A DNA stretch of 58,777 bases, filler included, from Squatina squatina (Eukaryota): assembly GCA_031763465.1 (NCBI GenBank). It is 3 parts of 3 records of this genome, joined end to end, with 100 filler letters (N's around TTAATTAATTAA, not from the genome) between each part and the next. Parts side by side here need not be neighbours in the genome. Positions count along the whole stretch, not along the records: positions 35,244 to 58,777 come from JARFOE010000058.1; 2 more parts are not named here. One strand, given 5' to 3'. Both the position numbers and the translations under genes were made by a program. Positions within the stretch are counted from its first letter, which is position 1. Every line of letters begins with the position of its first letter. The notes beneath the pieces were generated by a model. The model had not been told where the DNA came from, did not search any database, and saw only the letters and a list, made by a program, of their open reading frames with translations. Below are positions 17,727 through 55,493 of this stretch, one piece after another.

Positions 17727-17826
17727 NNNNNNNNNNNNNNNNNNNNNNNNNNNNNNNNNNNNNNNNNNNNTTAATTAATTAANNNNNNNNNNNNNNNNNN
17801 NNNNNNNNNNNNNNNNNNNNNNNNNN
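17727..17826. other. Artificial scaffold linker N44-TTAATTAATTAA-N44
   Basis: Palindromic 12-mer with stops in all six frames, centred in exactly 100 nt. An identical copy is at 35144-35243, and the genes on either side are unrelated. Confidence 0.97.
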
Positions 17827-18008: not shown

Positions 18009-18179
18009 CGACCGCGACTGCTGTGTTTGGAAAGGGACAAACTGACCCGGAGGTGGCACGTGTGGATGATGGTGGGGTGACAGAGGTGGAGGGTGCAATA
18101 TGAAGGGATCACTTGAGATAAGAGGAGGAAATGCAGCATACGAAACTGGCAGATGTTGTACAGAACATGCTTGGAGCAT
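18009..18179 (-). CDS. RNF38: RNF38 (RING E3 ligase) internal exon
   Basis: 171-nt phase-0 exon between ctccag and gtaagt. It translates MLQACSVQHLPVSYAAFPPLISSDPFILHPPPLSPHHHPHVPPPGQFVPFQTQQSRS, nearly identical to human RNF38. Confidence 0.93.
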
Positions 18180-20199
18180 CTGGAGGGGGAAAAAAGATAA
18201 ATGTAATATTTCAAATCATCACTGTACTTGAAAAGATGTTAATTTAGAGGATAAATTAATAATTATCTGCTTTTCATACTTTTCTACTCAACACTTTAGT
18301 TGAGCAAGTGGTCTCTTAACACTTCTGAAAAACAGGGATGAAATAGAGTGTGTGTAGATATTAAATTCATAAAATAACAGTGACTCAATGACAGCAGAGA
18401 GGATAAAAAAAAACAATCACACAGACCATTGGTGGAAAAGATACAAGCTTAGATGCACCATAAATAGAATATAAATGTGTAAATTAAATACAAAAATAGA
18501 TGTAAAGTCAACAGTAGTCATGTCTGGGAAATCTACCAGGCTGATTTGGCACAGCCTAACCACGCAGCAGTAGACAATGCCCGAGTCCTTAAAGAGCTAA
18601 GCCAGGCACATCTGTTCAGTCCGGAACAGGGAACCCGTCATCTCAATTTCCTGCCCTAACGCAGCCTCCAGGAAAAAATAAGATGAAGGCCCATATGAGA
18701 GCCCTTTTTGTGTGGCTTGGAGAAACTCTGAAAATTAAGTAGCCCTCTTTTAGTAATGTCAGTCATAATGGTATATTTTTGGCTCATTTTAAGTCGTCAG
18801 TGAGCTAGGAGTATTGCAGCATTTGAAACATAGAAATACATGAAAGTTACAACATGGAAAAAGGCCCAACCAGCCCATGTTGGTTGTTTACTCTCCACAC
18901 GAGCAAATAGTTTTAATCACATTTACCTGACCTGTTTCCACATCCCTTCATCCCGTTTTCCATCATCCACCTATCCAATTTAACCTTGAATATTAATATA
19001 GTTTCTGCTTTAACCACTAACCCTGTAAGTAAATTTCACATCTTCACAACTCTTCTGTGAAGAAGTTTCACCTGCCCTTTGTTCTAAATCGCTCACATCT
19101 AATCTTGTATTGAAACCTTCGTGCCTGACCTTTGATAATTTTAAACACTTCTATCATATCACCCCGTANNNNNNNNNNNNNNNNNNNNNNNNNNNNNNNN
19201 NNNNNNNNNNNNNNNNNNNNNNNNNNNNNNNNNNNNNNNNNNNNNNNNNNNNNNNNNNNNNNNNNNNNTGTTCCTCCGAGGCTTTACCCCATTCTACCAT
19301 TGCAACTTCCTCCAGCCTGGCATCCCAGTTGATGCCCTTCAGCCTGCCAACTCCTGTACATCTCTCCACACACCACCCCTCCACTTTCACTCCACTCCAT
19401 TAGACGGCAAAGTCTTCAGCACGCAACTCCCTCCACAGACCTCCTCTCCACCTCAAATGCCTCCTCAATATTTCTTTGGCTCATGCTTTGGCTCATTATC
19501 TTTAATTTTTCTAATCTGCTTGGCATTTATTTCTCTTTTGTGAAGCACCTTAGGATGATTATGTTAAAGGCATTATACAGTGCAAGTTGTTGCTGAAGAA
19601 AATGTCATGGCATTGGATTTAATCCATCTTGCAGGATACTTTCACATTTAACAAACAAACATTAGGTCAGTGGTCATATGAGATGGAGACACAAACAAAA
19701 CACTATTAGATCTTCTGATCCTCTTCCCTTGCATCAGATGTTTTACACTAGACAGTCTGTACAAGTCTGATTACAGGAAACCTCCCATCATGAGCAAGTA
19801 AAATTAGCTTCACAAGAGAACCTTGGCTGCTATTTACATCCTCTCCAAAAAAAAAGTATTTGTTGCTTATCTACATAAACAGAAACATTTCTCTGCAATG
19901 TCACATGATTTTTCAACAGCTAAAATACTATACTGTACAAATGCCAAAGACTGATTTNNNNNNNNNNTCACTCTTATGGTTTTTTTTTTAATCTTAGTGC
20001 ACACATCAATTTACACAGAACTCTAATCTCATATCGATGTTTGCCCATCTCTCCTTTTCCCTACTCTTCCTCCTCCATTTTGTTTTCTGCTTCCTTAACT
20101 TTTTCTGCAGCAAGCGTCATTCCTCAGTTGAGGGCATGGAAGAGATTATTTTTAGATTGTCAATGTTGTTCAGCTGGACAAATAGGAAGTGCTTCAACA

Positions 20200-20660
20200 T
20201 GGTGCAGCTCTACTATCAACCAATCATACAGACCAAGAAGATCCCAGGTTCCATTCTCAGTCTGTGCTAAGATAGCTGATGTCAGCTAGGGCGAATCTGG
20301 AGTGCTACAATTTCCCTCACAGTCTGAGTTGGGAAAAGGCAAGGGAAGGAAATCAGCTAGAGTTCATACTTCTGATTACTATCCAGTGAACCCTGAAGGA
20401 ATTACACACCTGTGAACACTGACTCCTTGCTGAGGTACAGTTCCAAGATTTCATCCTGCAGCTCTCCCAACCGGGCAGAATTCAAGGATAAAAATAAGGC
20501 TCAGCTTTGATGCCACACCCCACGGTGACTCAGCAGCCTGCAACATTTATCACTTTCCGTCAAAGTGCACAGGTATAGAATGGTCACTTAGATGTGGTAC
20601 TGGTGGATGACAAATGCCCATGGAACAGTATCTCAACAAGGACATAATGTTTTTAAAAGG
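20200..20660 (+). mobile_element. tRNA-derived SINE, second family
   Basis: Head cccaggttccattctcagtctgtgctaagatagctgat and body ggaaatcagctagagttc...ctgattactatccagtga, shared with 23580-23850 and 44200-44550. Confidence 0.6.
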
Positions 20661-21045
20661 GGAGAAAGTGCCGAGTAAAAAATATCATATTTTGGCTTTG
20701 AATTTAAGAGAACTAGTATACAAATGAATAATGTGCTTCAATACTCACTGAGGTCACAACTGCCACGGCAGTTTTCACATCTTAAGAAACTGATGACCAA
20801 TTTATGATTTGCCAATCTATGTAATGGTAGTTCTTAACAGGAACATCCCTTTCAAAAACACTTGCTCAGCAACAGATTAGTTCCAGTTATACTCTATTTG
20901 ACTAATATGAATGATTAAAGACAAAGATCTATTTGTGGCACAGGTATCTCACCAAGAGGCTTATACAAAGTGAAAGCTTAATTGTCATCCAGAACCAAAA
21001 AATAAACCACACGTTCAAGCGATGTATCCAAATCAATTCACCTAC

Positions 21046-21259
21046 CTGCTCATGGATGTCAACCACCACAGCATTCTGCTGCGGAGGGTGTGCGGCAGGG
21101 TGGAGCATGCGTGGAGATACATTCGGAGGGTGAAATGCTCTGGGCTCCTCGACAGCTGGTTGTTGTCCATAAGGATGATGGTGGTAGTTTTCGTCTTGGC
21201 TCATAGAACTATGCCTAGTTAGTCTTTCTCGTCTCCCTCGTTGCCGCCTAACAGGAGGA
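21046..21259 (-). CDS. RNF38: RNF38 internal exon
   Basis: 214-nt exon between tttgcacag and gtaggt. It translates (S)PPVRRQRGRRERLTRHSSMSQDENYHHHPY...PPQQNAVVVDIHEQ. Confidence 0.95.
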
Positions 21260-22261
21260 CTGTGCAAAAGCAGGTCAGAACAGTAATAGGTAAACATTAA
21301 CAGTGCAAGTTAGTTGAACAAAATCTGCCTTTGATCAACAACTTAATTGCTTGGCCCAGGTAAACTACATTATAGATTTCAACTTGTGATTTATNNNNNN
21401 NNNNNNNNNNNNNNNNNNNNNNNNNNNNNNNNNNNNNNNNNNNNNNNNNNNNNNNNNNNNNNNNNNNNNNNNNNNNNNNNNNNNNNNNNNNNNNNNNNNN
21501 NNNNNNNNNNNNNNNNNNNNNNNNNNNNNNNNNNNNNNNNNNNCTAAGGCAACATGGTTTGAACTTAGGGATAATATCAAAAAGAAGGATGGGAAAGGAC
21601 CATTTGGCTCATCAAACTCGCCCCATCCAGACATGACGCAGCCTCGTGCACCATCAATCCCTCTAACTCACTGTCTCCTGGTAGGGGGAAAAAAAGAATA
21701 ACATTGTGGCCAATTTAGGGAAAAGCTCTAGAAAATTCTCCTCTGACTTTTTAAAGCAATCAAACAAATCTCCCAAGAGTAACTCCTGAATTAAAATTAA
21801 TTGAAAACCAGTTGAAAAATAGGATTTACATTTTCAAAAACCTTAGAAGTTTTGGAGAATCTACTCAAAACCTGGGCAGTCCATTCCAATTAGATGCATG
21901 CCAACAATGGCATCTCATCTGTGAGATCTACCTCCTGCTCCTTAAATTCCTCATCACCTAAGTGGTCTCCATGCCAGTTGACTCTAAGTGGCTCCCTCTC
22001 AGGATGCATTGTTGCTCTCCCTTTCAAACCTTTGTCATTAGCCTAATTTCTCAAAAATCGTGACCCCTCTGTCTTTGGGAACTAATAGCCGAGCTCTAAC
22101 CTCCCATTCTGTTCAAAGTCCTTGAATATGTTGCTTCTCAGATCCTTGCCTATCTCTGCTGCAACTCAGATCTGTGCCCATCTCTGCTGCAACTCCCTGT
22201 TTTGAATCATACAATCTGGTTTTCTCTCCTTTCCACAGCTCCAAAGCATACCTAACCAAAG

Positions 22262-22570
22262 TTGTTAGAGGAGAGTCTAGAACTAGGGAGTCATAGTCTC
22301 AGCAGAAGGGGTCGGCCATTTAGGACTGATGAAAAATTTCTTGTGAATCTTTGGAATTCTCTACCCCAGAGAGCTGTGGATGCTCAGTTGTTGAGTATGT
22401 TCAAGGCTAACATTGATAGATTTTGGACTCTTAAAGGAATCAAGGGAAATGGGGATAGTATGGAAAAGTGGAGTTGAGGTTGAAGATCAGCCATGATCTT
22501 ACTGAATGGCGGAGCAGGCTCGAGGAGCCATATGGCCTACTTCTATTTCTTCTGTTCTTCTGTTCTTATG
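22262..22570 (+). mobile_element. CR1 LINE 3' end
   Basis: ORF GSHSLSRRGRPFRT...VNLWNSLPQRAVDA...FKANIDRF followed by the CR1 3' UTR. Confidence 0.85.
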
Positions 22571-22799
22571 AATAACCTTCAGAGTAACTGCAATCTCTGT
22601 AGCCTTCGACATGCACCATAGTCCTCCAATGTTAACTTCAGTTTGAAACACTGTTGCAAATAAACCTGAGTGGTTTAATTCCATAAAGTGCATTACAATA
22701 TTATTTTCATTTCAAGAGCCAATAAGGTCTAAAGAAACACTCTATGAAATCGCAAAATTTAGACACCTCCCTAACCGCATCAGATTTGCAACTATTTAC

Positions 22800-22993
22800 C
22801 TTCTTCTGTTGCGTGCAGGTGTATTGCATCTTTCCCCTGAGAAATGGTGTTGATTTGGTCGAGCTGAGGGAGGCCGCCTATTAGATGTCATCTCCCATGG
22901 TCGCATTGGTGGTGATGGAGCAGGAGATACTGCTGTGTATTCAAAAAACGAATGAGAGAGGCGCTGGCGCTTAGGACTTGGGCTTTCTTCACT
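22800..22993 (-). CDS. RNF38: RNF38 internal exon
   Basis: 194-nt exon between atacag and gtaaat. It translates SEESPSPKRQRLSHSFFEYTAVSPAPSPPMRPWEMTSNRRPPSARPNQHHFSGERCNTPARNRR, and its phase fits the next exon. Confidence 0.95.
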
Positions 22994-23579
22994 CTGTATC
23001 ATCACCAGAAAAAGAACCTCATTAATAAAATATTCCTTCCCATATAGACATACAATATATAGTGTTGGCAAGATATAATCTTTCTGCAGAATATGGAGAC
23101 ACTAGCCTTGATATTTAAGGGAAGACGAAAACGGAGCGGGGGCAACCATCAGCGGGCCAGGAAACTCTGAAATTCTGGGAATGCACAGGTGCTGCCGAAT
23201 TTAATGGCAAGACCTCATTAGAATTTTTAAATTCTGTNNNNNNNNNNNNNNNNNNNNNNNNNNNNNNNNNNNNNNNNNNNNNNNNNNNNNNNNNNNNNNN
23301 NNNNNNNNNNNNNNNNNNNNNNNNNNNNNNNNNNNNNCAGTGGGAGTACCCTCAAAGGATCAGAAATTAGGCTTGGAGCAATGTTTTCTCTAATTTTTAT
23401 GTTTAGCAATTCCTATGTTCCTATGTAATATTAGTTCTTCATCTCCCACTTGCTGCATGCTTGGGAGTTGGAGTTCCATAATTTTCCATTGATAGTGTGT
23501 CTTTCAAGGATAGAACAAGAAAGGAGAAATTGAAGTGAATAGCACATGGAGATCATTGACACGGAGCTTTCAAGATGTC

Positions 23580-26712: not shown

Positions 26713-26860
26713 CATTGTTATGGCCTTAATGTTATGGGTAGTTTTAACGTTCGTTCTCACGTCCACTAGGAACTGGATCTAAATTGCATTGTTATGGCCT
26801 TAGTGTTATGGGTAGTTTTAACATTCGGTCTCATGTCTACTAGGAACTGGATCTAAATTG
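26713..26860. repeat. Direct tandem duplication, 2 x 74 bp
   Basis: cattgttatggcctta.tgttatgggtagttttaac.ttcg.tctca.gtc.actaggaactggatctaaattg occurs twice back to back with about 5 substitutions. Confidence 0.92.
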
Positions 26861-35143: not shown

Positions 35144-35243
35144 NNNNNNNNNNNNNNNNNNNNNNNNNNNNNNNNNNNNNNNNNNNNTTAATTAATTAAN
35201 NNNNNNNNNNNNNNNNNNNNNNNNNNNNNNNNNNNNNNNNNNN
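35144..35243. other. Artificial scaffold linker N44-TTAATTAATTAA-N44
   Basis: Identical to the linker at 17727-17826. Confidence 0.97.
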
Positions 35244-37283: not shown

Positions 37284-38775
37284 GAGAAGTGCGAAGTGAT
37301 ACATTTTGGTAGGAAGAGTGAGGAGAGGCAATATAAACTAAATTGTACCATTTTAAAGGGGTAGCAGGAACAGAGAGACCTGGGGAGGTGTACACAAATC
37401 TTTGAAGGTGGCAGGACAAGTTGAGAAGGCTGTTACAAAGGATATGGGATCCTGGGCTTTATTAATAGAGGCATAGAGGCTGAAGTTGGCTACCGGGACA
37501 GTAACCTTTCCAAAGCTGCACACTTGGTGCCCATAGCACACTCGATTTCGCCTCGGGGCGGGATCGGGGGCACTAGTCAGGCATATCGCAGAGCGTTACA
37601 CGGCCCCGTACCGCTGACGCGTTTCAACACCACTCCCCTTCCGTTAAAGAGGAGGGACGCGGCGAGCTCTGCAGGCCTTGTGATGGTCTCCATTGGGCCG
37701 CCAGGGCTAAGGGACGCTGGGGCCACAGCCCGGCACTGAGACAGAGTGCTGGGCTGAACGATGATGGCACGGACCCCGCGACATCAATGGCCAATGGCCC
37801 CCGATCGGTGTGCAGCCCGGTAGCCTCACGGGGAGCTGCCCAATGTCCACCACGGGGAGGAAGTGGGCCGCCGCATGGCGAAAAGGGGTCATTGCGCACA
37901 GCGATGATGTCATAGCTGGAGGCGCGCTGGCCCAGGGCATTACCAGCGGGATTCGCGCCTCCGCTAACTCCACTAATTTCGCCCATTAGTCACCCCCCGG
38001 AGGCGTTAACTTGAGGCGCACAACAGGAGAATTTCACTCGCATAGAGTACAAAAGCAAAGAAGTTATAAAACACTGGTTAGGCCTCAGCGGGAGCATCAT
38101 GCCCAATGGCGGGCACCGCACTTTAGGCAGGATGTTTAGACCTTGGAGAGGGTGACGAGAGGAGATTTACTGGAATGGTTCCAGGGATGAGGGAATTCCG
38201 TGATGTGGAGAGACTGGAGAAGCTGGGGTTGTTCTCCTTGGAGCAGAGAAGGTTAAGGGGAGATTTAATCCAGGTGTTGAAAATCATGAGGGTTTGTGAT
38301 CGAGTAAATGAGGAGACACTGTTTCCAGGGGCGGGAGGGTCGGTAACCAGAGGGACACAGATTGAAGAGAATCGGCAAAAGAACCAGAGGGGGATGAGGA
38401 GAATGTTTTTCCACAGCGAGTTGTTGTGATCTGGAACATGCTGCCTGAAAGGGCGGTGGAAGCAGATTCAATAGTAACTTTCAAAAGGGAATTGGATAAA
38501 TACTTGAAGGGGAAANNNNNNNNNNNNNNNNNNNNNNNNNNNNNNNNNNNNNNNNNNNNNNNNNNNNNNNNNNNNNNNNNNNNNNNNNNNNNNNNNNNNN
38601 NNNNNNNNNNNNNNNGATTAAATTGTAACTTTCAAAAGGGAATTGGATAAATAAAGAAAAAAAAATGCAGTGCTATGGGGAAAGAGCAGGAGTGAGACAA
38701 GCTGGACAGCTCTTTCAAAAAGCCTGCACATGCATGATGGGCTGAATTGCCTCCTTCTGTGCTGTATGATTCTAT
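37284..38775 (+). mobile_element. CR1 LINE 3' part, interrupted by a TIR element
   Basis: CR1 sequence gaagtgcgaagtgatacattttggtaggaag...ctttattaatagaggcata resumes after the insertion as gagtacaaaagcaaagaagtt. The ORF ERLEKLGLFSLEQRRLRGDLIQVLKIM follows. Confidence 0.88.
37476..38041. mobile_element. GC-rich non-autonomous DNA transposon nested in CR1
   Basis: 566-bp block flanked by a duplicated ATA (37473-75 and 38042-44). Imperfect termini GAGGCTGAAGTT and AATTTCACTCGC (8/12). Confidence 0.75.
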
Positions 38776-48226: not shown

Positions 48227-50842
48227 ATGGCGAGCTCGCCCAATTATTACCACCAGGAGCAGTTACTACTACACCGGCACTACAACAACAGAGGGGACAA
48301 TGAAAGCAGCAGGCGTGCTGGGGACGCGGCAGCGAGAAGGAGGACGGCGGCGGCAACAGCAGCAACACCGCCGCTGCCGGCGTCAACGGTAAGAAGAGTT
48401 GACAGGCACGCGACGGACTCGGCAGCGCGCGGGAGCCCCGTCCACAACANNNNNNNNNNNNNNNNNNNNNNNNNNNNNNNNNNNNNNNNNNNNNNNNNNN
48501 NNNNNNNNNNNNNNNNNNNNNNNNNNNNNNNNACGACAACGGCTCGGCTCGAGCTGGGGCTTTATTCCGCGCAGCGCGAGCCGGTGCCTTCCAATGTGCG
48601 CGAGACGCTGCTCGCCAGCGACAACAACAACGCAGGCGGCGGCGCGCGTGAGCCGGCTGCCTGCTCGGCGCCGCGTGGCGAGGCGGCGGCTGCCGCCACC
48701 GGACGCGAGCGGGCAGTAACAACAACCGCGACGTCGACCACTATGGACGGTTACGAGGACGTCAAGAAATACGGCTACATGAGGAAGCAGAAGCACGGCC
48801 ACAAGCGTTTCTTCGTCCTGAAGGGACAGAGCCACCTGGGTCCGGCCAGACTGGAGTACTACGACAGCGAAAAGAAATGGAGAAACCGGTCAGCCGCCCC
48901 CAAGCGGGTCATCCCCCTCTACCAGTGCTTTACGGTGAGCAGGCGAGCAGATGCCAAAAGTAAATACCTCGTCGCCCTGTACACAAAAGATGAGTATTTT
49001 GCCATGGTGGCAGAGAACGACCAAGAACAAGAGAGCTGGTACTTGGCTATAAGTGAACTCATGAACGAAGGAAAGAAGATCGTGTTGGAGCCTGATGAAG
49101 TCGATGAGAACTATGGTAATTTTACCCCAGGCACCGTTTTCAAAGAAGTGTGGCAAATTAACGTGAAGCCCAAAGGGTTGGGGCAGACCAAGAACCTGAC
49201 GGGGGTGTACAGATTATGTCTTTCCAGCAAGATGATCNNNNNNNNNNNNNNNNNNNNNNNNNNNNNNNNNNNNNNNNNNNNNNNNNNNNNNNNNNNNNNN
49301 NNNNNNNNNNNNNNNNNNNNNNNNNNNNNNNNNNNNNNNNNNNNNNNNNNNNNNNNNNNNNNNNNNNNNNNNNNNNNNNNNNNNNNNNNNNNNNNNNNNN
49401 NNNNNNNNNNNNNNNNNNNNNNNNNNNNNNNNNNNNNNNNNNNNNNNNNNNNNNNNNNNNNNNNNNNNNNNNNNNNNNNNNNNNNNNNNNNNNNNNNNNN
49501 NNNNNNNNNNNNNNNNNNNNNNNNNNNNNNNNNNNNNNNNNNNNAGACTGGATTGCAAAGGCGCTCCAGGACTGAGAGCATGACTGGTACTTCTGCATCC
49601 AAGAATGAGGCATATCGTTTTCGGACATCTAGTGAAGGTGAAGGTACAATGACAAGACCCTTTGGCTCTGTTACAGGGAGTTTAATCCACTTAAATTCTG
49701 CAAGGATGGGCTTAAGTAGGGGTGATGGGAGTGGTCGGTACGTAAAACCACCCTTTGGCCCCTCAAACCATAGTAGGTCAGTGTCTCTGCCTGTAACATA
49801 CTTGCCATCTACTACAAGCCCTGTAAGTGTTTCTTCCAGTAGTGGGCATGGTTCTGCATCTGATCCTCTTACACGCCCATCTAGTTCATCCATTTGTGGT
49901 TCTCCAAGTGATGGTGGATTTATTTCCTCCGATGAATATGGATCTAGTCCTGGGGACTTTAGGTACTTCCGAGTTCGGAGTAATACACCGGATTCACTTG
50001 GTAACACGCCACCAATTCAAGAAGAAAATTGCTTGTGTGATTATATCTCAATGGATAGACATATAACTGCTGTAAATCATGAAAGCAGAACAAGAGATGA
50101 CTACATGGTTGCTGAGAAAGGATACAGAAAGAGGACCCACTCTCTAACCACTTCCGGTGCAGTGATAATGCATCAAAAGACTACGCAGACAACTTCATCT
50201 TTGGATGAATCTAATATTGAATCAAACTGTGTGGGTATTAGCAGCCATCTATCATGTTCTGCATCACCAAAGTTGACCTGTAATCCTTACCATGAAGATT
50301 ATAGTGATGTCGAGATTGGACCCTCGATAAGCCAAAGCAGACCAAGAGATGATGGTTATATGCCAATGATGCCTGGTGTTGCATCTGCTAGCCATAATAG
50401 AAATCATGATTATATGCCAATGAATCTTAAAAGCATTTCTGCTCCAAAACAAATTGGTTCTTTGCCACCAAGTCAAATGGACTCAAGAGGGTATATGGTG
50501 ATGTCCCCCAATGATAGCAGCTCTCCAGTGCGAAGCATGTTTACAGAGTATGGTTCTAAACTATTGACCAGCAACAATGAAAAATTATCAAATAGTGAAT
50601 ATATGGACATGTCCCAAAGAAACCTAAATACACGGAAACTATCCAGTGATTGCTTCTATAATATCACGAGTCTTGATGCTCCTAAATCCTATAGCTCCTA
50701 TTATTCACTGCCTCGATCATTCAAAGCTCCTTCACAGGAAAATGGTGAGCATGATGAATATGTACCTATGTGTTCACCAGGAAAGTTGATGTATGGAGGG
50801 GCATCAATGTTTACTGGCACTATTGTGACCCCTTGTGTTTAG
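48227..50842 (+). CDS. IRS4: Insulin receptor substrate 4-like, 5' part of the large coding exon; truncated by a satellite
   Basis: ACAATGG start (MASSPN). PH domain GYMRKQKHGHKRFFVL...VIPLYQCFTVSRRAD...DEYFAMVAENDQEQESWY has IRS4-type residues. The PTB domain starts KEVWQINVKPKGLGQTKNLTGVYRLCL and continues into a frame-preserving gap. YXXM motifs: YISM, YMPM x2, YMVM, YMDM, YVPM. The last ~11 codons and the TAG come from the satellite. Confidence 0.9.
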   Translation: MASSPNYYHQEQLLLHRHYNNRGDNESSRRAGDAAARRRTAAATAATPPLPASTVRRVDRHATDSAARGSPVHNXXXXXXXXXXXXXXXXXXXXXXXXXXXXTTTARLELGLYSAQREPVPSNVRETLLASDNNNAGGGAREPAACSAPRGEAAAAATGRERAVTTTATSTTMDGYEDVKKYGYMRKQKHGHKRFFVLKGQSHLGPARLEYYDSEKKWRNRSAAPKRVIPLYQCFTVSRRADAKSKYLVALYTKDEYFAMVAENDQEQESWYLAISELMNEGKKIVLEPDEVDENYGNFTPGTVFKEVWQINVKPKGLGQTKNLTGVYRLCLSSKMIXXXXXXXXXXXXXXXXXXXXXXXXXXXXXXXXXXXXXXXXXXXXXXXXXXXXXXXXXXXXXXXXXXXXXXXXXXXXXXXXXXXXXXXXXXXXXXXXXXXXXXXTGLQRRSRTESMTGTSASKNEAYRFRTSSEGEGTMTRPFGSVTGSLIHLNSARMGLSRGDGSGRYVKPPFGPSNHSRSVSLPVTYLPSTTSPVSVSSSSGHGSASDPLTRPSSSSICGSPSDGGFISSDEYGSSPGDFRYFRVRSNTPDSLGNTPPIQEENCLCDYISMDRHITAVNHESRTRDDYMVAEKGYRKRTHSLTTSGAVIMHQKTTQTTSSLDESNIESNCVGISSHLSCSASPKLTCNPYHEDYSDVEIGPSISQSRPRDDGYMPMMPGVASASHNRNHDYMPMNLKSISAPKQIGSLPPSQMDSRGYMVMSPNDSSSPVRSMFTEYGSKLLTSNNEKLSNSEYMDMSQRNLNTRKLSSDCFYNITSLDAPKSYSSYYSLPRSFKAPSQENGEHDEYVPMCSPGKLMYGGASMFTGTIVTPCV

Positions 50843-53159
50843 GTGCATGAGTGTGCTCCCTCATGTTTACTGGCACCAGTGTGCTCCCTAGTGATTACTG
50901 GCACTCGTGTGCTCCCTGGAGCTTACTGACTGTAGTGTGCTCCCTGGTTTTTTTCTGGCACTAGTTGGCTCCCTCGTGTGTACTGGCAGTCATGTTCTCC
51001 CTAGAGTTTACTGGCACTAGTGTGCTCCCTCGTGTTCAATGACACTCATGTGCTCCCTGGTGTTTACTGACACAAGTGTGATCCCCAGTGTTTACTGGCA
51101 CTAGTATGATGCCTAGTGTTTACTGACAATATTGTCCTCCCTAGTGTTTAGCTGTACGAGTGTGCCTCCTCGGGTTTACCAGCACTAGTGGACTCCCTAG
51201 TGTTAACTGGAATTAGTGTGCTCTATAGTGTTTACTGGCACTAGTGTGATCCCTAGTGTTTACTGGCATTAGTGTGCTCCCTAGAGTTTACTGACGCTAG
51301 TGTGATCCCTGGTGTTTTCTGGCACCAGTATGCTCTCTAGTGTTTCCTGATACTAGTGCGCTCCCAAGTGTCTTCTGACACTAGTGTGCTCCTGAGTGTT
51401 TAGTGGCAACTGTGTGATCCCCAGTGTTTACTGGCACTAGTGAGATTCCTAGTGTTTACTGACAATAGTGTGCTCCCTAGTGTCTAGGCGCACAAGTGTG
51501 CTCCCTCATGTTTACCGGCACTAGTGCGCTCCCTAATGTTTACTGGCACTAGTGTGCTCTACAGTGTTTACGGGCACTAGTGTGCTCCCTAGAGTTTTCT
51601 GACACAAGTGTGCTCTATAGTGCTTACTGGCACTAGTGTGCTCCCTGGAGTTTACTGACTGTAGTGTGCTCCCTGGTTTTTATTCTGGCACTAGTTTGCT
51701 CCCTCCTGTTTACTGGCACTCATGTTCTCCCTAGTGTTTACTGGCACTAGTGTGCTCCCTAGTGTTCAATGACACTCGTGTGCTCCAGGGTCTTTACTGA
51801 CACTGGTATGCTCCCTGGTGTTTACTGGCGCAAGTGTGATACCCAGTGTTTACTGATGCTTGTGTGATTCCTAGTGTTTACTGACAATAGTGTGCTCCCT
51901 AGTGTTCAGGCGCACGAGTGTGCTCCCTCGTGTTTACCGGCACTAGTGGGCTCACTAAAGTTTACTGGCATTAGTGTGCTCTATAGTGTTTACTGGCACT
52001 AGTGTGCTCCATTGTGTTTACTGGCACTAGTGTGATCCCTAATGTTTACTGGCATTAGTGTGCTCCCCAGAGTTTACTGACACTCGTGTGATCCCTGGTG
52101 TTTTCTGGCACCATTATGCTCCCTGGTGTTGACTGAAACTAGTCTGCTCCCTACTCTTTACTGGCATTAGTGTGCTCCCTTGTTTTTACTGGCACTCGTG
52201 TGCTCCCTAGTGCTTACAGGCACTCGTGTGCTCCCGAGAGTTTAATTACACAAGTATGCTCCCTAGTGTTTACTGGCAATAATGTGCTCCCTGGTGTTTC
52301 CTGACACTAGTGTGCTACCTGCTGTTTACTGGCACTAGTGTGCTCCATCGTGTTTATTGGCACCAGTGTGCTCCCTGGTGTTTGCTGGCACTAGTGTGCT
52401 CCCTAGGGTTTCCTGATACAAGTGCGCTCCCAAGTGTCTTCTGACACTTGTGTGCTCCCTAGTGTTTACTGCCACTAGTGTGCTCCTGAGTGTTTAGTGG
52501 CAACTGTGTGATCCCCAGTGTTTACTGGCATTAGTGTGCTCCCTAGCAATTACTGACACTCGTGTGATCCCTAATGTTGACTGAAACTAGTCTGCTCCCT
52601 ACTGTTTACTGGCATTAGTGTGCTCCCTTGTTCTTACTGGCACTAGTGTGCTCCCTAGTGTTTTCTGGCACCAGTATGCTCCCTGGTGTTGACTGAAACT
52701 AGTCTGCTCCCTACTCTTTACTGGCATTAGTGTGCTCCCTTGTTCTTACTGGCACTAGTGTGCTCCCAAGAGTTTACTGGCACTCGTGTGCTCCCGAGAG
52801 TTTACTTACACAAGTATGCTCCCTAGTGTTTACTGGCAATAATGTGCTCCCTGGTGTTTCCTGACACTAGTGTGCTCCCTGGTGTTTACTGGCATTAGTG
52901 TGCTCCCTAGTGTTTCCTGATACTAGTGCGCTCCCAAGTGGCTTCTGACACTAGTGTGCTCCCTAGTGTTTACTGGCACTAGTATGCTCCTGAGTGTTTA
53001 GTGGCAACTGTGTGATCCCCAGTGTTTACTGGCACTAGTGTGATTCCTCGTGTTTACTGACAATCGTGTGCTCCCTAGTGTTTAGGCGCACAAGTGTGCT
53101 CCCTCATGTTTACCGGCACTAGTGCGCTCCCTAATGTTTACTGGCACTAGTGTGCTCTA
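50807..53159. repeat. 28-bp tandem satellite, about 84 units visible, ending in a gap
   Basis: Consensus CTAGTGTTTACTGGCACTAGTGTGCTCC read directly from the sequence. Units are diverged, with no unique spacers. Confidence 0.97.
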
Positions 53160-53928
53160 NNNNNNNNNNNNNNNNNNNNNNNNNNNNNNNNNNNNNNNNN
53201 NNNNNNNNNNNNNNNNNNNNNNNNNNNNNNNNNNNNNNNNNNNNNNNNNNNNNNNNNNNTCCTTTTTTGCCTTTTTTATACTCAGTCTAACTTTTTTTCC
53301 CCCTTTTTTCTTTTTGTACCTAATTTGACATTGAATTCACCCACCCTAATCTGTACGTACTTCTTAGTCCTTCTTTCACAATCCTTCTGATTGGTTAAGG
53401 AGATGCACAGTTGCTTGCCCAGTTCACTCGGGTCCCAGATCCCCGTTACCCTCACTGTGATGTTATCAGCTTGCACTTTCAGCAACTTGCAATGCAAAAA
53501 GTTTTTTAAAACTTAAATGAGCAAGTTTAACTAATGGCAGATGCTGTTAGATTCACTCCTACAGCAACTTATGGGCCAATAGTTATCTGCTGCTATGCTC
53601 AATGATGATGAAAGTAATATCCTTAGATTTTTTTTTTCCCCCTCGCAGTTTACACGTGCTGTCTGGTGTCTCCTCCTGAAGGTTCCAGACAAACTTCCTG
53701 ATTTGATGATAAATAACTTCAAAAGTTGAGAGCAAGGAGAGTTAGAGCTGAGTTCCAGAACAAAACTTTCATTCAAACATGCATTTGAACAAACCCTGAG
53801 AGATTTGCATGTAAATGGAATGGCTTGGCTTCTCCATGGACACCAGCCACAGATGAATCTACCAAAATCTGTAACGTGTAAATTAAACTGGGATATAATT
53901 TGAGTAAAGCTGGATATTAATCCCATAT

Positions 53929-54649
53929 GTACAGTCACCGAAGCCAGCTATTCTTTCCTCAAATTCTTTGACCGGTATGACCATTGCTTCAAGTTCAAGC
54001 ATAACCAGAAGCCAGCCAAATGATGCCTACATCAGTGTTCCTCTTGGTGCCACTTGTGTCAGCACAGCTGCTGAGGTGGATGATTACACCGAAATGACAT
54101 TTAATTTGGCAGTAACAGCCACTCGTCCTGCTTCACCGAAGCTAGACAGTGTAGAAGTGACTGGTCCTACTGCCATTGTGAAGCGACTGTGTATTATCGA
54201 TCAGTATCCTAGTATGAATATCTTTCCTGTCCCTAATCCTCCCTCTGATGCCAATTATGGTCCAAAGGTGATCCGTGCTGACCCACAGGGAAGAAGGCGA
54301 CACAGCTCGGAGACATTCTCCTCGACACCCACAGTGACCCCTTCTCCCTTTTTTGCCGATAGTAGTAAAAGACACAGTTCTGCTTCATTTGATAATGTTT
54401 GGCTTAAGCCAAATGACTGTGTTAGTGATGAGCACAGGAGTACCATGTGCAGAAATACATCTGCAGGTTTTCAGAATGGATTGAACTATATTGCTTTAGA
54501 CTTGAGTGAAGATCACGGATGTTCTGAATCAAATGGAACCGTGCAGACTCCACATCACCTCCAAGTCGCCAGCGGTATAGATGCTAGAGGCTATGCCAGC
54601 ATAGACTTTACCAAATCAGATGGGCTGAAATATACCTCAACATCTGAAG
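53929..54649 (+). CDS. IRS4: IRS4-like, 3' part of the large coding exon
   Basis: Frame is open from after TAA 53905-07: VQSPKPAIL...DDYTEMTF...KVIRADPQGRRRHSSETFSST...KRHSSASFDNVWL...QNGLNYIALDL...GYASIDF. A probable phase-1 donor GAAG|gtttgt lies at 54649/54650, as in IRS2. The 5' boundary is approximate. Confidence 0.85.
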
Positions 54650-55493
54650 GTTTGTTCTGTTTTTGTTTTCCATATTTCAGACGATCAAAGTACAAAGTTG
54701 TATGAGACTATGAAATATTAAATGGATGTCAAAATGGAGAATAGGGGATTTTGCAGTGACTTGACCAGTTGTATGCAGTGAAATGCGTGATTTATAGTCC
54801 TGGAGTTGTGTACAGTAAATACATACTTTAACCTTAAACCTTATTTGTTATGTTAATACCACATTGAGGGAGTTGGTGGTAAGAGGGAAGAAACTAAATT
54901 CTACCTTTTCTAACCTCTTTGCCCACCCCACCTTTTGAATTATTTTTCTGGAAGTGGTGTATTAAACTGTGGCGATTTGCTGTAGGAGTATGGGCATTAT
55001 TCACAGGTACTGGCTCTGGTTTTAATGAGGTTTGCATGACCAGATTCTTATACTGCACATAATTGGTAGTTTAGGACGCTGGACAGCCCTTTTTGGAATC
55101 TGCAACAGTAAGCTTTAGTGATCTAATTATTATACACAGAGTATTGCTTGGAATCAGGTAGACTGCATAGCTACTGTTAATTGTTAGCTCTGTGCAGTTT
55201 TCCAGTTGTGAAGCTTGCTTTAAATCTACTTGGAAGAGGATACGTTTGATTACGCTTCACATGTTTTCCAATCTTATTGGAACCGCTGTTGTGTTTGCAG
55301 TAGTGGTGGAAAATAAGAATTCTTTTAGAGCCAAATGTTGTGAATTCTGGTAAGTGTAACTGTATTTATGCATGGAAACGACAATAGATTTTTNNNNNNN
55401 NNNNNNNNNNNNNNNNNNNNNNNNNNNNNNNNNNNNNNNNNNNNNNNNNNNNNNNNNNNNNNNNNNNNNNNNNNNNNNNNNNNNNNNNNNNNN

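Follow-up and report, generated by a model that had tools for sequence, protein, structure and literature searches.

Why does the coding exon of an IRS4 gene, which is continuous in other cartilaginous fishes, lie in two pieces on either side of a 28-bp satellite in the Squatina squatina assembly GCA_031763465.1? The window, meaning the whole stretch of 58,777 nt analysed here, holds an open reading frame of 871 residues that runs from ATG 48227 to TAG 50840-42 and crosses N-runs of 83 and 307 nt, just as a preliminary description had it (about 871 aa). IRS4 sequence returns at 53927, 3102 nt past the left break and in agreement with the 3.1 kb given earlier, and both halves are open. The exon is not simply split by the satellite, as had been described: the halves are also separated by a gap of 100 N and by 667 nt of other DNA, and 319 nt of exon are missing. 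The loss of this conserved stretch and the origin of the interposed DNA from at least two other sources speak against two of the explanations first offered, a simple insertion and the gain of an intron. The third explanation, that the assembly is chimeric, has the best support. Judged from the sequence, the split is probably an in-silico chimera in which two short-overlap mis-joins flank a coverage hole (probability about 0.86). An artefact of any kind, whether made in silico or in the library, is highly probable, a recent real event of any kind is improbable, and on present evidence the IRS4 split is likely not a real feature.

The gene is likely IRS4, an assignment based on names and similarity rather than on a tree with IRS1 and IRS2 as outgroups. 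Among the best 120 of 964 protein matches, the top places go to ten proteins from sharks, rays and chimaeras (85-94% across residues 441-860), with Heptranchias and Pristiophorus at their head, which points to a likely squalomorph source; the next-best named matches are coelacanth, bird and reptile proteins called IRS4 (61-64%). The chondrichthyan orthologues carry the source name 'insulin receptor substrate 2-A-like'. Positions 49547-50824 are 94.1% identical to the Heptranchias protein (P0003) and 94.8% identical to that of Pristiophorus (P0004). IRS4 is linked to COL4A5/COL4A6 from chondrichthyans on, according to the relevant passage of PMC12141075. The 5' half had been said to keep the PH and PTB domains and the YXXM sites. 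The PH domain is present (PF00169 at residues 179-279, E 1.7e-08) and is the only Pfam match of the window protein, and there are six YXXM sites; the PTB region lies mostly under the 307 N. P0004 matches PF02174 (PTB), and the first PTB residues of the window protein align.

The two N-runs inside the exon (48450-48532 and 49238-49544) keep the reading frame. The 307-N run has the length of the 103 orthologous residues, whereas some 28 codons contributed by the 83-N run have no counterpart in most orthologues. Either masking or gap sizing guided by a reference could account for this. At 50328, the exon has a 6-nt in-frame deletion relative to all four relatives compared.

Table 1. Positions of the features of the split IRS4 locus, counted along the window.
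Feature	Position	Strand	Remarks
IRS4 coding exon, 5' part	48227..50824	+	866 codons counted across both N-runs; PH domain
YXXM motifs, IRS4 5' part	50042, 50357, 50411, 50492, 50600, 50759	+	
Left overlap: IRS4 codons that also form a satellite unit	50806..50824	+	17 nt exact, 18/19 overall
28-bp tandem array	50808..53159	+	84 units, mean 84%; satellite-only from 50825
ORF-ending TAG, within satellite unit 2	50840..50842	+	closes the 871-codon ORF
100-N gap	53160..53259	.	parts ungapped pieces 49545-53159 and 53260-55393
High-copy interspersed repeat fragment	53260..53590	.	end approximate; by contig depth
Locus B: single-copy non-coding sequence of another locus	53552..53947	+	separate contigs in relatives
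Right overlap, 21 nt	53927..53947	+	matched by locus-B and IRS4 contigs (X2, X10)
IRS4 coding exon, 3' part	53927..54649	+	YTEM 54085, YIAL 54487, YASI 54592; splice donor GT at 54650

The two halves do not abut. The 5' half reads as IRS4 up to M-F-T-G-T-I (codon end 50824), the 3' half restarts at V-Q-S-P-K-P, and 107 conserved codons (319 nt) are gone from the window. An alignment of IRS4 from related sharks and rays, which the preliminary description had proposed, finds all ten cartilaginous-fish orthologues continuous (1046-1228 aa) and in possession of the segment that is absent here, with 107 residues in nine of them and 104 in one. Its mean pairwise identity among the ten is 86%, compared with 88% and 85% for its flanks, and its YINI, YSLS and YMSV motifs are kept in every orthologue; YxN motifs bind GRB2. 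In other respects, the window closely resembles chondrichthyan IRS4, as represented by P0003 and P0004: identity is 94-95% over the 5' segment and 88-92% over the 3' one, and the motifs and the position of the terminal splice donor are shared.

Contigs of related species point the same way. Five runs were used, all from relatives, among the 24 runs listed (maximum word share 0.08), none of which is from S. squatina itself; no RNA holder of the window's words was found among those 24. In four of four runs, contigs match 49547-50824 and then, read by eye, continue with the orthologues' next residues. In X1, X2 and X16 (three of three), both halves apparently lie on one contig each, 319 nt apart, a call based on equal record length, depth and strand of the two matches. 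Within the window, tblastn with 15 homologues gave no separate match to the absent segment, and no remnant was seen when 53260-53990 was read by eye in six frames. Among 28 short-protein candidates, none matched residues 720-866 at E <=0.001, so that no bridging fragment from the same species turned up. The titles and abstract openings searched on IRS4 exon structure in cartilaginous fish, and on a 28-bp shark satellite, held nothing on this locus, which leaves absence from the literature unproven.

At the left break, the exon was said to run directly into the satellite at about 50807. The passage is indeed gapless, leading from IRS4 into the 28-bp array without any N, but the letters at the junction are not satellite alone. 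Positions 50807-50824 are IRS4 codons (M-F-T-G-T-I in P0004; both P0004 and P0010 encode T-I here), and relatives' contigs match to 50824 in four of four runs, as far as the 40 of 84 difference rows listed extend, with base-by-base identity inside the overlap falling outside those rows. The ATGTTTACTGGCAC that had been taken for the plain start of the satellite is thus IRS4 coding sequence as well. The satellite-only sequence from 50825 adds just five residues, VTPCV, to the reading frame. TRF calls the array at 50808-53157 with 83.8 copies; the mean of 84% in Table 1 is the identity to the common unit over the 81 full-length units of 84 phased by script. Longer-range repeats occur within the array at offsets of 560, 1094 and 1598, and the longest exact repeat measures 77 nt.

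When both strands of the array were compared with the 2931 sequenced coding positions, unit 1 being excluded from the satellite model, the longest exact match was the 17 nt at 50806-50822; the runners-up measured 13 nt within the coding sequence and 14 nt elsewhere in the window. The satellite profile scores 25.1 at the break, compared with at most 13.0 away from the junction. The left break is therefore the best satellite match of the coding sequence and sits where IRS4 already resembles the satellite, so that a simple insertion at a site chosen independently of similarity fails as an account. Insertion of a simple repeat or a mobile element likewise does not fit, since the halves lie 319 nt apart in relatives and no target duplication was seen. 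In X1, a separate 54-nt contig aligns at 50806-50841 and is preceded by satellite-like letters, so at least one relative has this repeat outside IRS4. Growth of the satellite in place from an IRS4 motif was rejected on account of this contig, the roughly 16% divergence of the units and the intact flanks.

The DNA on the far side of the N-gap is of a different kind. Summed contig depth from 53260 to about 53590 runs from thousands to tens of thousands, compared with 8-59 for the IRS4 exon. The sequence that follows, here called locus B, is on non-IRS4 contigs in three of three probable DNA runs: among the matches listed, these contigs cover 53552-53947 in X10, 53669-53947 in X2 and 53669-53929 in X1, at a depth near that of the IRS4 contigs. 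In X16, which is guessed to be an RNA run as X1, X2 and X10 are guessed to be DNA runs, depth is zero at 53620-53907. The idea that 53650-53926 is a misplaced last IRS4 exon was rejected, because X16 has no depth there although its IRS4 contig extends 4520 nt beyond the donor. A blastn search of the window for another copy of 53260-55393 gave none. Locus-B and IRS4 contigs share the 21 nt of the right overlap in X2 and X10 and only 3 nt in X1, where the locus-B match ends at 53929; these extents are those of the matches listed, with the letters past 53947 and any mismatches within the overlap outside that listing. For a random breakpoint, the chance of a 21-nt match with <=4 mismatches is at most 1.2e-7.

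From 53927 on, relatives' contigs match the window again in four of four runs. The X16 contig departs from it at 54649, where the DNA contigs continue, which is consistent with the normal terminal intron of IRS4. The 3' reading frame extends 17 residues into this intron (54650-54705), and the true C-terminus needs a downstream exon. Further into the intron, 54957-55056 is a stretch of exactly 100 nt that is replaced by a single base in X2 and X10 and lacks a second copy within the window; it may be either a lineage-specific insertion or a filled gap.

Neither half shows signs of long relaxation in its open frame, its listed differences or 12 relative-rate tests. Synonymous changes make up 30 of the 40 listed differences in the 5' half and 15 of the 26 in the 3' half, and amino-acid changes 10 of 40 and 11 of 26, respectively. 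With 285:993 and 167:553 synonymous to non-synonymous sites, the ratio computed by hand from the listed rows only is near 0.10 for the 5' half and 0.22 for the 3' half. In the relative-rate tests, which took P0003 and P0004 as partners and used three outgroups, chi2 stayed <=2.0 in 12 of 12. The earlier conclusion that two intact halves speak for an event that is either recent or artefactual holds, both frames being open without an increase in rate; a real event of very recent date would leave an identical picture.

The scaffold itself is fragmented. Over the whole window there are 41 N-runs, which sum to 4601 N, and the 42 ungapped pieces have a median length of 1178 nt. Two identical blocks, N44-TTAATTAATTAA-N44, stand at 17727-17826 and 35144-35243. 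They are artificial linkers with stops in all six frames and likely mark software joins of unrelated pieces; in PMC3019230, the TTAATTAATTAA core belongs to a six-frame-stop separator placed between scaffolds that were concatenated. Between the linkers, on the minus strand, lie three RNF38 exons (18009-22996; 92-98% to catshark proteins). The exon for residues 310-361 of P0131, expected between 21043 and 18188, and all other RNF38 exons were not found in the window. RNF38 and IRS4 are on records of different length in four of four shark or ray species, where the length given for a multi-member cluster may be that of another member. A 38-nt near-duplicate (95%; 38465-38502 and 38616-38653) flanks the 100-N gap at 38516-38615, which is suggestive of overlapping contig ends. 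Two-copy tandem repeats occur at 26713-26860 (74 nt, 93%) and at 22137-22195 (28 nt, 90%), the latter unrelated to the satellite in sequence.

A default smallest k of 21 and default gaps of 100 N are common in assembly and scaffolding. If the locus was mis-joined, thin coverage in the 319 nt would have opened a hole and left short dead ends in the IRS4 exon, which would then have been pruned or overridden while branches sharing about 17-21 nt were followed, possibly in a small-k graph or by overlap-based extension or merging. The left piece would have been extended through its shared word into the 28-bp satellite, and the right piece joined through its own shared word from locus B. Scaffolding would then have placed the two next to each other and separated them by a default gap of 100 N. 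The animal's own IRS4 exon would be ordinary and continuous and would encode a protein of about 1,200 residues. Multi-k assemblers of the kind described in PMC7299287, which treats metagenome assemblers in the part concerned, begin with small k values, clip tips and pass their contigs on to later rounds.

The observations behind the mis-join reading are the missing 319 nt, the two overlaps, partners that continue separately in relatives, the N-gap and the fragmented scaffold; the earlier account had named a chimera as one of its three explanations but had overlooked the N-gap, the loss of the segment and the overlap at each break. As in a short-overlap chimera, a shared word stands at each junction, and the partners continue differently, as seen in relatives. 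In a genome that we take to measure 3-6 Gb, the number of chance shared words expected within 150 nt of any point is 0.2-0.4 for 21-mers, 3-7 for 19-mers and <0.002 for 25-mers, so that overlaps of the observed size are what chance offers near any hole. Chimeric contigs from short-read de Bruijn or overlap assembly likewise have junctions on short shared words in fragmented scaffolds, a likeness drawn here from the assembled letters; the left exact overlap of 17 nt sets the present case apart. Several points count against a mis-join. The 5' junction lies inside an ungapped piece of 3615 nt, the longest in the window. The left exact overlap reaches 17 nt in the window's array copies, short of 21, and a 21-nt exact copy has an estimated chance of 4.7e-7 per unit and would need many genomic copies; an exact overlap below 21 leaves room for an overlap merge that allows a mismatch, or for a library chimera. 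The overlap of only 3 nt in X1 weighs in the same direction, as does the larger proportion of amino-acid changes that the listed rows give for the 3' half. The three RNF38 exons are whole, which implies that such mis-joins are not everywhere.

A library chimera would also be an artefact: incompletely copied strands would have annealed at short overlaps during amplification and been assembled where true coverage was thin. It accounts for the same overlaps, can absorb the single mismatch among the 19 nt of the left overlap and has a plausible annealing partner in the abundant satellite. Locus B, however, is single-copy by depth and ill suited to chance annealing, and the scenario requires two chimeric molecules 319 nt apart. 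This origin is unlikely. Were the junctions real, they could stem from a very recent microhomology-guided template switch of the FoSTeS/MMBIR type that replaced 319 nt by at least 3 kb of satellite, repeat and locus-B DNA. A stop upstream of a later intron marks a message for nonsense decay. Such an event would leave either a truncated protein of 871 residues or, given the intron that starts at 54650, a message that this decay would likely remove. The 5' junction without N suits such a switch, and the layout found here, a deletion at the site together with pieces from several loci and microhomology at the junctions, is the one that PMC5120786 describes for complex human insertions, which pair site deletion with templated pieces from more than one locus. 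Nonsense and frameshift alleles of IRS4 are viable in humans, as are knockout mice, according to the portion of PMC6161650 concerned. Yet the microhomologies given in the relevant part of PMC5120786 measure 1-5 bp, though longer cases may exist, compared with 17-21 nt at both ends here. The satellite is joined to locus B across an N-gap, which leaves their physical linkage putative; neither half shows decay or acceleration, and the scaffold bears other marks of artificial joining. A template switch is thus very unlikely.

The preliminary description saw no good phase-matched GT/AG pair for a new intron. The candidate sites are indeed weak by eye, but a phase-0 pair formally exists (GT 50825 and AG 53933-34), and splicing between the two would give an in-frame protein minus 109 residues if the interposed DNA were real. 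The GT is also the first non-IRS4 dinucleotide. A true intron gain, however, loses no exon. This exon lacks 107 conserved codons, those for YINI and YMSV included, and splicing at the GT/AG pair would delete two more. The donor GT comes from ordinary satellite DNA and the acceptor AG from a conserved Gln codon of IRS4. The splice donor consensus has G at -1 and at +5, both of which, by eye, are absent from ATT|GTGACC. Such an intron gain is extremely unlikely. A combined event, in which a recent microhomology-guided swap exchanged 319 nt for at least 3 kb of satellite and foreign DNA that is now spliced out as a newborn phase-0 intron, is exceedingly improbable; if true, IRS4 would keep its C-terminal tyrosine motifs and lose 109 residues with YINI and YMSV.

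As an artefact, the split IRS4 exon is a warning that false joins in this assembly can sit inside ungapped sequence and conserved exons. Claims of gene loss, intron gain or synteny drawn from it consequently need read support. If the split were real after all, a lineage that otherwise conserves this exon would offer a naturally truncated IRS4 or an intron at the moment of its birth, and the event would be a rare case of templated replacement guided by long microhomology.
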